Source of the DNA: Oscillospiraceae bacterium
Lineage (GTDB): Bacteria; Bacillota; Clostridia; Oscillospirales; JAAYXM01
Length of the DNA stretch: 64,000 nt
Direction: 5' to 3'
NCBI GenBank assembly: GCA_017409405.1
Contig: JAFQSU010000078.1
Location: forward strand, 13,850-77,849
Each line of letters begins with the position of its first letter. Position 1 is the stretch's first letter. Below, piece by piece: positions 49,118-61,319 of the stretch. The position numbers were made by a program, and so were the translations under genes. The notes under the pieces were generated by a model, which saw only the letters and a program-made list of their open reading frames with translations, ran no database searches and was not told the DNA's origin.

Positions 49118-51757
49118 TTAGTTGCCGTGTACATACTCGCCGTCTTCGATAATAGTGAAGGAGCTGCCTTTTCTTATAACTGCATAGCCTGTGTATGTTC
49201 CCTCTTCGTCAGCCGTGACGGTGAACTGATTTCCGTCACCCATCATTGCAATTTTGGAAACGGTCTCTCCGTTATCGAACATGATTCCCTTTTCAACTGC
49301 GTTGTCAAGACCGATAAACTCAGCCATAACAGCAGTTATATCGCCCGAAACGAAATCGTCAAGTGCAATCTTTACAAGCTTTGCCGAAAGCTCCTTGTCA
49401 CCGGTCATTTCTGTAACAGTGCAGGTTTCGTACGCAAGGAAGGTATAGGTCTTGTTGGTGCATACAATTTCACCGTTCTTAACCCAGCCCTTGAAGTTTG
49501 CCTCTGTTGCCGTAAGCGTTACGGGGTCGCCGTAGCTATACTCAACACCGTTTACATAAACTTTGCTGAGGTCGCCGTAGTCTGCAACATAAATCACCGT
49601 ACCCTCGGGTGCAACAGCTTCGCTTCCGTCATATACCATTCCGTCATTCCAGCACTTCCAGCCGGTTGCCTGACGGAGACCTGCCATACTCGGGAATGCA
49701 GGGAATGCGCCCGTGGTATTGCTTTCGATAAGCTCACCGTTTGCGTTGTAGAACTCTGCCTTGTTTGCAACGGAATCTGCCTTCTCATAGACCGCGATAA
49801 ACGAGCTTCTTCCCTCCTGCGGATTGTATGTGAGCGTATCCCCATATCCTACTATACGCTTCTTATCCGAGGTGCCCTTTGCCCAGTAGAGGAAGTTGTA
49901 TCCCTCTGCGCTCATATCGGGTGCCGTAACGGTGTAAACACCGCCGATTGCGACATGACCGCTTCCGATTACATCAGAGCCGATGAGCGTGCCGTCGGTC
50001 ATGTAAGCCGAGATTGCATCTACTGTTGCAAGTCCGCTTGTTACGTATTTTTCAACCGAGATTTCGTCTGCCGAGCCTTCGCCGGTTGTCTTGTCAAACT
50101 TAAAGCTCTGCATGTAAACATATTGGCTTGCTCCGCCGGACTTGCCTGCCGGGGTGATGACAAGCGTGTTTGCATACTCGCCGTCAAGAAGCTCTGCCGT
50201 GTACAAATCCTGTGTTACAACGGCGTTGTCCCAGAGATGTGCCGTCGTGTCATATGAATCTACCGTGCCGACGTATTTGCCGTTGACATAGATATCGCCG
50301 TAGCCGCCGCCCGTCATCGGGTTGACAATAGCCGATACATCATATGTACCTGCGCCCGTCGGGGCGGTGAACTTAATTGCAAGGTCGCCCCTGTCCTTTA
50401 TAGTCATGAAATTATATGTATTTGCCGGGCTTGAGCCGAGAGAGAGCTGGATTCTCGGTGCATTATCCGTGCCGTCCCTCTGACCCGAGGCTGTAGCAGC
50501 GGCATCTACCTTCCAGTTGTAGCCTGCGGTTTCTGCGTTAAAATAGTCAAATACATCATTAACGTCAGAGAGCGTAGTTTCATCCGCTGTGCCGAAGTCA
50601 AGCTCAAAAGAGTCGCCCGATACCGTCGTTTTGTCAAACGCAAAGCCTTTGAGAACTACTGTTGAACCATTGGGGACAATTGTGAGAGTGTTGGCATTCT
50701 CTCCGCCGTGGAGATATGTGGGTGATAACTTCTGCTTTTCGTTTTCCCAATAAAATCCGGCTGTTATACCGGTATAAGCGGAATAATCTCCTGCGGTTGC
50801 CGCCGCAAGCGTTCCCACCTTTTCACCGTTGATGTATACATCACCAGTTCCCCCTGAAGTCTGTGTTACAAGAGCTGTAACATCATACATACCGGCACCC
50901 TCGCTCGCCGTAAAGCGTACTGTCATTTTTCCGTTATTTCCAATTTGGGTGAAGTTGTAAAGAGCAGCCAACTGAACACGGACAGCCGAGCCTGTTCCAG
51001 CTATCTGTGTAGCCGCTGTGTTTGCAGCAGCCGCATCAACCTTCCAGTTTAATCCTTTTGATACAGAATTAAAATAGTCAGTAGCATTTGAAACCGTAGA
51101 AAGCGTAGCTTCATCAGCTGTGCCGAAATCGACCTCAAAGCCTGCGACCTCACGCTTTGTAAACTTTACGCCCTGCATTGCAACATCTTTACCTGTTCCT
51201 CTGCTTGTTCCGTTAGGTACAATGACAAGGGTATTTGCATATTCCCCTGCCTTGAGGTATGCAGAGAGGAGAGTCTGTTCATCGGGCGGGCTTTCAAGTT
51301 GGTTAGCAGTGGCATAAGAATCTATGGTGCCTATGTATGTTCCGTTTATATATACATTGCCCTTTCCGTAGTTCGCCATAAGTGTGACAAGACCCGTTAC
51401 GTCATACATTCCCTCTGACGGTGCGGTAAAGTCAACAGCAAAAATGCTTTTTAGGGGAGAACTGCTAAGATACTTTATCTGCGTAAAGTTCATACCAGTA
51501 GCTGTGTTCCGTTGAGTTCTGGTTCTTGAACCGTTTATTGCCTCTGCTGTGCTAAGGCTCGCATTTACCTTCCAGTTTGCACCATAGGTTGTGGATACAA
51601 CATATGTATTCGACAATGTCCCGGTATCATGCGCTGTGCCGAAGTCTACTGTGAATTCGGTGACATCGCCTGTCGTATTTGCCGAGGCAAATGCGCCTGC
51701 CGAGAGGATGCCGAGCAAAAGAGCGCCCGTGATGATAATGGATATAAGCCTTTTCAT
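49118..51757 (-). CDS. Secreted 879-aa protein with three tandem CBM6/35-like modules and an unknown C-terminal region
   Basis: AGGAGG RBS, signal peptide ending AFA; three repeats of FxVDFGT...NWKV...YDV...G.VYING...ANTL.I.P.G. Confidence 0.85.
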   Translation of the reverse strand: MKRLISIIITGALLLGILSAGAFASANTTGDVTEFTVDFGTAHDTGTLSNTYVVSTTYGANWKVNASLSTAEAINGSRTRTQRNTATGMNFTQIKYLSSSPLKSIFAVDFTAPSEGMYDVTGLVTLMANYGKGNVYINGTYIGTIDSYATANQLESPPDEQTLLSAYLKAGEYANTLVIVPNGTSRGTGKDVAMQGVKFTKREVAGFEVDFGTADEATLSTVSNATDYFNSVSKGLNWKVDAAAANTAATQIAGTGSAVRVQLAALYNFTQIGNNGKMTVRFTASEGAGMYDVTALVTQTSGGTGDVYINGEKVGTLAAATAGDYSAYTGITAGFYWENEKQKLSPTYLHGGENANTLTIVPNGSTVVLKGFAFDKTTVSGDSFELDFGTADETTLSDVNDVFDYFNAETAGYNWKVDAAATASGQRDGTDNAPRIQLSLGSSPANTYNFMTIKDRGDLAIKFTAPTGAGTYDVSAIVNPMTGGGYGDIYVNGKYVGTVDSYDTTAHLWDNAVVTQDLYTAELLDGEYANTLVITPAGKSGGASQYVYMQSFKFDKTTGEGSADEISVEKYVTSGLATVDAISAYMTDGTLIGSDVIGSGHVAIGGVYTVTAPDMSAEGYNFLYWAKGTSDKKRIVGYGDTLTYNPQEGRSSFIAVYEKADSVANKAEFYNANGELIESNTTGAFPAFPSMAGLRQATGWKCWNDGMVYDGSEAVAPEGTVIYVADYGDLSKVYVNGVEYSYGDPVTLTATEANFKGWVKNGEIVCTNKTYTFLAYETCTVTEMTGDKELSAKLVKIALDDFVSGDITAVMAEFIGLDNAVEKGIMFDNGETVSKIAMMGDGNQFTVTADEEGTYTGYAVIRKGSSFTIIEDGEYVHGN

Positions 51758-51821
51758 TTTTCTTTCCTCCTGAAAATTGATTTGTTTTGTATATATAAAC
51801 GCATTTCTGCATTGTTGCTGA

Positions 51822-52070
51822 TGTGTTCCTCACCCGTGGGAGATCCTTCGATTCCGCTTCGCTCCACTCAGGATGACAGTGCCGTTTTTTTGTCATGACT
51901 TCGCGGAGCCGCAGGCGCAGTCGAAGAATCTCAAGCCTTCCCCTTGAGGGGAAGGTGGGTTGCAAAGCAACTCGGATGAGGTGGAAAAATAACGATTGCT
52001 CCGCAATCTACACCTCATCAGTCACTACGTGACAGCTTCCCCTCAAGGGGAAGCCTTTCCGAGATGACAG
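51822..52070. repeat. REPIN-like cluster: family-A doublet plus family-B doublet
   Basis: Inverted copy of 30680-30813, then GCCTTCCCCTTGAGGGGAAGG..GATGAGGTG / CACCTCATC..CTTCCCCTCAAGGGGAAG. Confidence 0.88.
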
Positions 52071-60120: not shown

Positions 60121-60305
60121 ATTTCCTCCTTCTTCGAATCCGATAATTCACCACTGTATTTTATCTTAATATAATTTTAATATATCGGCGCTTTTGCTTC
60201 AATATGTAAATTTGCACATTTGACCAAACTTATTTTTCTCTTGAAAATTACCGTGAATTGTTATATTATTGTAATATAAGATTTTCGGCGAAAGGAGGGG
60301 CTTCT

Positions 60306-61319
60306 GTGAACGTCATACCGCCTATGCTTTCAAACGCAATTCCCGATCTTAGCAACGATGTTTCTTTCTTTCACTTTTCTCCGGTTTCGGTACAAAAAGT
60401 CAGGTATAAAACCATAAACCCACAGCATTGGCATGATTATTCGCAAATCTGGTACACAGTTTCAGGTTCGTATTATCACACCATTAACGGCGAAAGACGT
60501 CTTCAAACCCCGGGAAGTGTATCACTTATCTTTCCGCATACGCTTCATGGGGTCGATACCTCTCTGTCCGATACCGAAAATGCGCGTATTATATATTTTT
60601 CCATCCGTGAAGACATGTTTTCCAAAAATTACATGCCGTTTATTCCCCTGACCTACTCTCTTGCATCCTTTGATAAATTTGTTCTGAATCCTTTTATTAC
60701 ACTTAATGGGAAGGATAAAGAGCTTGCAGACGAGCTTTGCGAAAGCTCACTTTCCGAATTTTCAAAACAAATGGCCATGCAAAGCCATAAAATCTTAAAT
60801 AACTGCGCAACACTTCTCGAGCTCTGTGCAAAAACCGTGAACACGCCCTTTTCGTCAAACACTTTAAAAATGGCTCAAGAGCGTGCTGTTCACATAAATA
60901 ATTCGGTAGCTTATCTCAAAAACAACAGTGCAGATAAAATATCAATTGAAAGCACCCGAAGCCACGCCATGATGTCAAAAAGTTCCTTTACTGAAAAATT
61001 CAAAACCACGGTAGGGCGCACACACCACGATTATCTTACACGCCTTCGTATGGCAAAAGCCATTTCACTCATGCGTTTTTCACGAAAAACCATTGCTGAA
61101 ATTTCAGACGAATGCGGATATGCAAACAACTCCCACTTCACACGCACCTGCATAGAAATATTTTCTGTACCGCCGCAGGTGCTCCGCCAACAGCTTGTCA
61201 CCTGGGCAAGAGGATGCGAGCATGTGTATATGAATCAAAGACGCGAAAATTCATGGGCTCAGATTCTTGACAGCGAGACTATCGAAGACCACCGCCGCAT
61301 AATGCTCGGCATTGACTGA
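60306..61319 (+). CDS. AraC-family transcriptional regulator (cupin plus HTH)
   Basis: HWHDYSQIWY cupin; FK...G.T..DYL..LR, IAEISDECGYANNSHF; GTG after AAGGAGG. Confidence 0.92.
   Translation: MNVIPPMLSNAIPDLSNDVSFFHFSPVSVQKVRYKTINPQHWHDYSQIWYTVSGSYYHTINGERRLQTPGSVSLIFPHTLHGVDTSLSDTENARIIYFSIREDMFSKNYMPFIPLTYSLASFDKFVLNPFITLNGKDKELADELCESSLSEFSKQMAMQSHKILNNCATLLELCAKTVNTPFSSNTLKMAQERAVHINNSVAYLKNNSADKISIESTRSHAMMSKSSFTEKFKTTVGRTHHDYLTRLRMAKAISLMRFSRKTIAEISDECGYANNSHFTRTCIEIFSVPPQVLRQQLVTWARGCEHVYMNQRRENSWAQILDSETIEDHRRIMLGID

Follow-up and report, generated by a model that had tools for sequence, protein, structure and literature searches.

The sequence studied here is a stretch of 64,000 nucleotides from an Oscillospiraceae bacterium (assembly GCA_017409405.1, contig JAFQSU010000078.1, positions 13,850 to 77,849), referred to below as the window. 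It contains a trio of genes: gene A, coding for a giant secreted multimodular protein; gene B, coding for a second secreted protein on the same strand; and a divergent AraC-type regulator (Table 1). A sequence-only reading of the window had proposed that they form a unit that captures and cleaves an acidic polysaccharide at the cell surface. On re-reading the sequence, the three open reading frames (ORFs) were present as first described, with the same coordinates and lengths. The trio had been treated as a single locus, but it is one of at least 21 paralogous cassettes in the source genome, with transport proteins and the enzymes GH88 and KduI encoded in trans.

The architecture proposed for A was confirmed by Pfam and module mapping: modules with Ig-like repeats, a catalytic region, an Ig domain, a Gly/Asp linker and three SLH repeats (E 9e-32, in three stretches), behind an N-terminus that looks like a signal peptide by eye. 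The heparinase II/III motif assigned to the catalytic region was matched, but below threshold when taken alone (Hepar_II_III_C, 23.5 bits against a cut-off of 24, E 4.7e-5). B also has a signal-peptide-like N-terminus, and, as had been stated, no catalytic domain was found in it by Pfam scans or in its predicted model, which is all-beta (pLDDT 78.5). The divergent gene is a cupin-AraC gene (Pfam cupin/AraC_binding and HTH_18) whose likely start, read from the sequence, is the GTG at 60306, with a Shine-Dalgarno motif upstream at 60290-60298. Pfam gave no cohesin or dockerin match in A or B, nor in three paralogs of each, in agreement with the description of the system as non-cellulosomal.

The cassette count rests on several searches of the source genome (G000; 1.94 Mb, 87.8% complete, 0.37% contamination). 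Profile searches of 3,351 six-frame ORFs gave 25 with the catalytic core of A and 21 with the C-terminal region of B, the former including contig-end fragments, one gene in two ORFs (C27) and one short outlier (C66). A sequence motif of the core, calibrated as a copy count in this genome only, had 21 sites, and all 21 fall in separate giant genes, making 21 giant SLH paralogs a minimum. With these at least 21 giant proteins go 21 partners and 16 solute-binding lipoproteins (SBPs); genes A and B together account for 11.3% of the assembly, or 12.9% when SBPs and further fragments are added. The largest paralog clusters among 1,559 non-overlapping ORFs are AraC (34), A (25) and B (21); the SBPs are a fourth family. 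Of the 18 A genes whose 5' flank was assembled, 17 have a B gene no more than 4 kb away; one of these 18 is an N-terminal fragment only, assumed to be A. Within 5 kb of A or B lie 14/16 SBPs, 19/34 AraC genes and 22/60 accessory genes, against 82/1,398 background genes; for the accessory genes this enrichment is post hoc, since their families were chosen after being seen near cassettes.

Table 1 Features of the cassette, in window coordinates
Feature	Position	Strand	Remarks
Gene A	52081-60120	-	2679-aa secreted multimodular protein: 3 x (CBM-like module + Ig repeats), lyase-fold core, He_PIG, linker, 3 x SLH
A module M1	59530-60042	-	CBM-like beta-sandwich; aa 19-197, followed by 2 Ig-like repeats
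A module M2	58438-58908	-	CBM_35 below cut-off, E 0.0017; aa 401-561, followed by 2 Ig-like repeats
A module M3	57337-57840	-	aa 754-928, followed by 3 Ig-like repeats
A core	53164-56448	-	aa 1225-2319; (alpha/alpha)n toroid + beta-sheet domains
CxxC...CxxC-FP[ST]NDF insert	56113-56241	-	predicted metal site
Predicted active-site residues	54583-55407	-	N1572, E1648, Y1653, D1708, H1823, H1825, Y1846 (N348, E424, Y429, D484, H599, H601, Y622 in core numbering)
He_PIG Ig/cadherin-like domain	52882-53121	-	aa 2334-2413, Pfam; Gly/Asp linker and SLH follow
54-bp palindromic repeat	52669-52722	-	in frame in A linker
Three SLH repeats	52093-52647	-	second in-frame palindromic repeat at 52252-52299
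A-B spacer	51758-52080		323 bp, made of dispersed palindromic repeats
Gene B	49118-51757	-	879-aa secreted protein, 3 CBM-like modules + C-terminal region BCT
B modules, 3 CBM-like	50090-51676	-	
B C-terminal region BCT	49121-49972	-	InlB B-repeat-like units + end domain
15-pair hairpin 3' of gene B	49075-49108		terminator-like; consensus scan only
Divergent promoter region	60121-60305		
Sigma-70-like sites	60202-60174 (towards A), 60241-60269 (towards AraC)		consensus scan only; 28 sites in 12.8 kb vs 15 expected
AraC regulator, cupin type	60306-61319	+	ORF open from 60258 to 61319

To place the core among known enzymes, its AlphaFold model (pLDDT 93, pTM 0.91) was compared with a wide library using VIA-align. 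The best matches were the polysaccharide lyases (PLs) AlgL17 of family PL17 (9IRQ; Z 32.7, root mean square deviation (rmsd) 4.3, 649 aligned, 19% identity) and Uly1040 of PL40 (9VTK; Z 32.7, rmsd 3.7, 711 aligned, 16% identity). Dermatan sulfate epimerase 1 came third (Z 25.9), in the company of PL15, PL12, PL35, PL39, PL21 and PL33 enzymes at Z 22-26. The twelve best matches span Z 22-33, while the next tier does not exceed 15.5, and the predicted core thus has the two-domain fold of the PL12/15/17/21/33/35/39/40 group. Gellan lyase and PL33, considered as a possible nearest family, were rejected (Z 22.1, 11% identity).

Because PL17 and PL40 score equally at 19% and 16% identity, the core fits no solved PL family closely. 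A PDB search with the single core sequence found no lyase, and a profile search gave PL17 as the best match (E 1e-13), with a main match of ~140 positions. Homologs of Uly1040 are delimited at >30% identity in PMC12915356; the core has 16%, with a profile match that covers its C-terminal part only. Nor did the core show full-length sequence similarity to PL17 members, its identity being 19%. The core profile retrieved 1,243 cluster representatives at E <=1e-30 and 4,153 at 1e-3; the nearest Atlas clusters carry Hepar_II_III_C alone, then come PL40-type clusters, and Bacteroidota and Planctomycetota are the commonest sources.

The paralogous cores are 27-61% identical (median 39%), and N348, E424, Y429, H599 and four cysteines are invariant in 20/20 giant paralogs. 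D484 (19), H601 (18) and Y622 (17) are less fixed, and neighbouring positions 264, 273, 275 and 352 take 8-9 different residues. The cysteine-rich insert is present in all 21 giant paralogs covering its position. This combination of a fixed catalytic centre and variable loops suggests that the paralogs act on different substrates; in PL33, specificity is set by tunnel loops, according to PMC11848413. In the profile alignment, H599 and H601 fall on H485 and H487 of Uly1040, in which Asn245/Trp246, a Tyr305 acid and a His485 activated by Asp358, His487 and Mn are described (PMC12915356, in part). The conserved Tyr and His dyad is present in the core, H599 by alignment and Y429 as an invariant residue placed by spacing. 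In PL17, the base is Tyr450 of Alg17c (PMC11848413, in part); its loop is unaligned with the core, and Y622, kept in 17/20 paralogs, may or may not take its place.

The core might instead be a C5-epimerase or another non-lyase, or most copies might be variable adhesins and not feeding enzymes. Dermatan sulfate epimerase 1, besides its third rank among the fold matches, has a catalytic apparatus in common with lyases (PMC11848413, in part), and one paralog carries Asn for D484 and Asp for H601. PL17 and PL40 score 7 Z above this epimerase, GH88 and KduI are present in the genome, and SBPs and catabolic enzymes cluster at the cassettes, all of which make such a role quite improbable. The deviant paralog (C39:2521-9810, L007) has no adjacent B and may be inactive or of altered chemistry. 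Two other copies are also unusual. The giant gene at C27:1975-8158 (L003) is split within the core into 1625-aa and 426-aa ORFs, by a real break or an assembly error. The homolog at C66:15051-17960 (L014) is a 969-aa stand-alone core among housekeeping genes, on a long tree branch, and lacks a signal peptide, SLH repeats and the four-cysteine motif pattern; it is possibly a cytoplasmic oligosaccharide lyase.

The modules of B are CBM-like. The nearest folds of the first module are the xanthan-binding CBM84 structures (carbohydrate-binding module, CBM; 7EHG, Z 13.7, rmsd 2.3, 130 aligned), followed by CBM6 (Z 12.1) and CBM35 (Z 10-11), all within the jelly-roll beta-sandwich. Pfam CBM_35 is matched at E <=0.05 by 4/28 modules (best 5.7e-5), none of them in the window proteins above the Pfam cut-off. 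The C-terminal region of B is ~280 aa long, and the Atlas points to InlB B-repeat-like units in it (score 0.93). Matches of B to Cry/Vip and C1q-type proteins were rejected as a functional clue, reflecting the common jelly-roll fold (TM 0.1-0.17).

In 11 of the 14 testable cassettes of the source genome (16 candidates), the modules of B had their best match in the N-terminal part of the adjacent A. In other genomes this held for 9/13 distinct cassettes (raw 8/14; 78 candidates), once a duplicated locus had been dropped and a tie involving a duplicate settled. This match fits a ligand specificity shared by the two proteins, or merely local module duplication. Distances between B C-termini track those between AraC proteins (rho 0.67, p 0.013, n=8). 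No AraC operator common to the cassettes was established in 17 upstream regions, inspected by eye and without statistics.

As first stated, the window trio is flanked by neither a sugar transporter nor a GH88 gene, but both occur elsewhere in the genome. There are 8 permease matches, of which only a pair on contig C84 reads as a sugar ABC pair. This pair adjoins a 737-aa protein with an AraC-like region (C84:27914-32468), and together they are a candidate shared importer and regulator. One GH88, a KduI beside a short-chain dehydrogenase, and UxaC are also encoded. GH88 and KduI act on lyase products, and their presence with UxaC is as expected if the core makes such products. A KduI domain at C36:990-2636 (L117) stands behind an unannotated ~300-aa N-terminal region, and similar lengths are found in relatives G001 and G013.

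Gfo/Idh/MocA oxidoreductases, GH109, GH20, GH127, DegT-type aminotransferases, amidohydrolases, ceramidase-like amidases, an M55 D-aminopeptidase and a glycerophosphodiesterase are encoded near the cassettes. Bacterial capsules and O-antigens typically contain amino sugars, amino acids in amide linkage and glycerol phosphate, and the diversity of these polymers would explain a large lyase repertoire. Bacterial capsule or exopolysaccharide would be the likely substrate class. Of the distant loci, 10/17 have at least one accessory family or SBP beside the core, as judged from 45 proteins picked by eye from 139. Four large proteins without a Pfam match beside cassettes (C87:3198-5585, C59:3793-6096, C34:14685-16532 and C34:32458-33873) are candidate glycan-processing enzymes.

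The same cassettes could serve to degrade host glycans, such as hyaluronan, heparan or chondroitin chains or mucus-associated acidic glycans. Alongside one GH88 with UGL-type motifs, the genome encodes two GH20 enzymes and five members of GH109; hindgut samples are, by title, the source of several named relatives, and the glycosaminoglycan lyases of PL12, PL21, PL33 and PL35 have the same fold (Z 22-24). Profile searches found no glycan sulfatase in the source genome, though, the sole sulfatase match being a membrane protein read as LTA-synthase-like (lipoteichoic acid, LTA). The few glycosaminoglycan backbones would hardly call for 21-64 diverged enzymes; the family also occurs in Paenibacillus and Cohnella, and its Atlas clusters are commonest in Bacteroidota and Planctomycetota. 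We consider host glycans unlikely as the main target.

Dietary plant or algal acidic glycans (rhamnogalacturonan, arabinogalactan gums, glucuronan or alginate) are similarly unlikely. They would agree with the herbivore guts from which relatives were obtained, with the presence of GH127, GH2, GH3, KduI and UxaC, and with the alginate and ulvan substrates of the nearest solved enzymes. Yet GH28, GH43 and GH5 were not found in profile searches of the source genome, and no CAZyme (carbohydrate-active enzyme) domain was seen in seven other SLH proteins of this genome that were scanned. The amidases, aminotransferases and D-aminopeptidases beside the cassettes would also fit amino-sugar glycans better.

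The expansion recurs in the bacterial family to which the source genome belongs. The core motif was found in 29/32 same-family genomes, with 0-64 matches per genome over the 32 and 64, 59, 58 and 56 in four of them, where a reversed control pattern gave 0-1 per genome. In an order-wide sample, it was present in 6/6 same-family and 3/114 other-family genomes. Copy number follows genome size (rho 0.91, n=32), a correlation in which kin are not independent and to which the cassette genes contribute by themselves enlarging the genomes. A search for relatives' loci with a single sequence gave none, and a search with an alignment succeeded. Named relatives with the core are Oscillospiraceae/Eubacteriales metagenome-assembled genomes (MAGs), several of them from goat and deer hindgut by title, and the core is also carried by Paenibacillus and Cohnella. 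A FastTree tree of 100 cores put 80 gut-MAG rows to one side of a branch with support 99. Within it, paralogs of the source genome are mixed among those of other genomes, which points to an expansion that is both old and continuing.

The C-terminal region of B was detected in 16/32 genomes of the family, and in the window's genus its number rises with that of the lyases. With this query it was not found in 11/11 genomes of four genera, 10 of which have the lyase motif, and B appears to be dispensable in other genera. Relatives also encode a short form of ~1,240 aa, made of the core and SLH with few or no N-terminal modules (L034, L133, P0001-P0013). In Paenibacillus-type homologs (e.g. P0101, P0238-P0241), the core is often in two stretches, split near position 550, and in P0101 a CBM_35 match directly precedes the C-terminal core half.

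The SLH tails are 69-85% identical in DNA across paralogs and contain in-frame palindromic repeats, and many contigs end there. The 54-bp repeat of A is identical in three other paralogs, whose cores are ~40% identical, and both in-frame repeats of gene A are related to intergenic copies (79-92% identity). The similarity of the tails and the identity of this repeat in four paralogs suggest recent recombination among SLH tails. The window cassette itself looks mosaic: M3, the core and AraC are closest to locus L131, and B, M1 and M2 to L037 and L035. These repeats, the contig breaks and the copy in two ORFs (C27) might also be expected if the expansion were neutral amplification through repeats and recombination, or an assembly or binning artefact. 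This explanation is very improbable and already largely refuted, as the cores are only 27-61% identical yet keep their catalytic residues, the paralogs interleave with those of other species, contamination is 0.37%, and the expansion recurs in many genomes. At the window itself, contigs from another run (X2), made in the study of the possible source, match without a difference at 52702-62300 and 48769-51851 but do not bridge the A-B junction, which is rich in repeats. Cover of B was low in runs X5 and X7, which were left out of account.

Two other genes of the window bear on anchoring and uronate use. The uxaC gene was confirmed by Pfam. The gene first read as csaB, at 36.5-38.8 kb, does code for a fusion of a GT4 glycosyltransferase and a polysaccharide pyruvyl transferase (749 aa, 36535-38784; PS_pyruv_trans, E 5e-45), and is by Pfam a putative CsaB. 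Its neighbours are a Wzy_C gene and a DUF4330 gene.

Taken together, these results favor a reading, to which we give a probability of roughly 0.6, in which the trio is one of at least 21 cassettes that each likely provide a wall-anchored lyase for their own uronic-acid glycan, most likely a capsule or exopolysaccharide. What survives of the capture-and-cleave proposal is a predicted SLH-tethered enzyme of lyase fold, a non-catalytic module-bearing neighbour and a divergent AraC. The core is close to no solved PL family and the genes are co-conserved, where the proposal would have been refuted by a core of well-characterised subfamily and known substrate together with genes neither co-conserved nor co-regulated. 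We infer wall anchoring, glycan capture by A and B, beta-elimination, SBP import and cognate AraC induction, as follows. The SLH repeats would tether A to pyruvylated wall polymer, and the CBM-like modules of A and of B would grip the same glycan. The core would then cleave by beta-elimination; a Tyr would serve as the acid and a His as the base, within the His-Asp-His-metal arrangement that PL40 and PL39 are reported to have. Unsaturated oligomers would be caught by one of the 16 paralogous SBPs and imported via a shared ABC permease pair, and GH88, KduI, GH20, GH109, Gfo/Idh/MocA oxidoreductases, amidases and aminotransferases would finish them. The adjacent AraC would likely induce only the matching cassette. 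Duplication, drift of the loops and shuffling of modules would be the likely source of new specificities, with recombination keeping the SLH tail below them uniform.

More tentatively, with the odds slightly against it, the uncultured gut family might be a specialist grazer on the capsules and exopolysaccharides of other gut bacteria, with 20-60 specificity variants of a single new lyase family, each having a lectin-like partner with the same binding modules, a sensor and often an SBP of its own, and with a repertoire renewed by module shuffling on the recombining SLH tail.

Several observations weigh against the reading of cassettes each devoted to a capsular glycan, besides the choice of accessory families after their sighting. 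At the active site, the correspondence of N348, E424, Y429 and D484 with Uly1040 rests on spacing only, Y622 is offset from Y511 by three residues in the alignment, and the residue after Asn is Phe, Tyr or Val and not Trp or His. The lead of CBM84 over CBM6 is only 1.6 Z, and a 28-module profile best matches a GH98 xylanase module (E 9e-9), then MiXBM and CBM35/CBM6. The cognate module test fails in 3/14 own cassettes (C54, C63, C89) and 4/13 foreign ones. Distances between A cores correlate neither with those between B C-termini (rho 0.07, p 0.20, n=15) nor clearly with those between AraC proteins (rho 0.34, p 0.055, n=8). The window cassette has its regulator but no SBP, with permeases in trans, and 7/17 distant loci lack accessory families and SBPs. 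The case for the substrate class is built on gene neighbourhood and on families absent from a genome that is 87.8% complete; profile searches covered five CAZyme families and KduI, and only selected proteins were scanned. GH43 occurs in relatives G001, G007 and G013, and weak GH28 matches in two relatives.

The core represents a large family without a close solved member, about equally distant from PL17 and PL40. A single genome offers at least 21 natural variants, alike in catalytic centre and different in loops, as a panel for finding substrates and specificity rules. One enzyme cassette takes up 11-13% of a small genome here, which is unusual as a strategy among Gram-positive gut organisms. 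Should the substrates prove to be capsules or exopolysaccharides of bacteria, the organism would be a specialist in recycling microbial glycans in the gut, and its enzymes could serve glycan analysis and work on biofilms.

The component parts (lyase fold, CBM-like modules, SLH, AraC and SBP) are of known kinds. A literature search at the level of titles and abstract openings found no description of the core family or its expansion; annotations of these proteins may exist in supplementary CAZyme tables of MAG papers. Compared with PL40 Uly1040 (9VTK; PMC12915356, in part), the core has the same two-domain fold over 711 residues (Z 32.7), an H-x-H aligned to H485/H487, and Asn, Glu, Tyr and Asp at comparable spacing. 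It differs in its 16% identity, ~240 additional residues, the four-cysteine insert, Phe/Tyr in place of Trp/His after Asn, its position within a 2,000-3,900-aa SLH protein, and the lack of any glycan sulfatase found in the source genome. The PL17 enzymes AlgL17 (9IRQ) and Alg17c (4NEI) provide the best profile match (E 1e-13) and the joint-best fold match (Z 32.7), with GHGHxD and HNT motifs that align with the core; identity is 19%, and the Tyr450 loop of Alg17c is an insertion absent from the core family in the profile alignment.

The closest described enzyme type is the multimodular PL39 lyase Dp0100 of Defluviitalea phaphyphila, also a large enzyme from Firmicutes. It belongs to the same fold group (Z 22.9), and its modules include some of the CBM35 type (PMC9971899, in part); PL39 has the same His-Asp-His-Mn tetrad (PMC12915356, in part). 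Dp0100 is 14% identical to the core (tier range 12-14%), its catalytic domain is N-terminal with the modules behind, and the available text of PMC9971899 describes no SLH, partner gene or expansion for it. The nearest folds of module M are those of CBM84 (MiXBM 7EHG and the Paenibacillus xanthan lyase 6F2P, Z 13.7-13.9; PMC10881899, in part). CBM6 (12.1) and CBM35 (10-11) are also similar, with weak profile matches; identity to these families is 13-15%, and ligand binding by the modules is putative.

By its three SLH repeats and the pyruvyl transferase gene in the window, A agrees with SLH-anchored enzymes, its wall binding being predicted. Polysaccharide utilization loci of Gram-positive bacteria and SLH-anchored CAZymes combine a regulator, a wall-anchored secreted enzyme, a solute-binding protein and cytoplasmic enzymes. 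The Paenibacillus loci of the core have such a layout, with their own permeases. Unlike these systems, the one described here multiplies one enzyme family 21-64-fold, a single permease pair of the sugar type appears to serve its 16 SBPs, and its dedicated partner repeats the modules of its own lyase.

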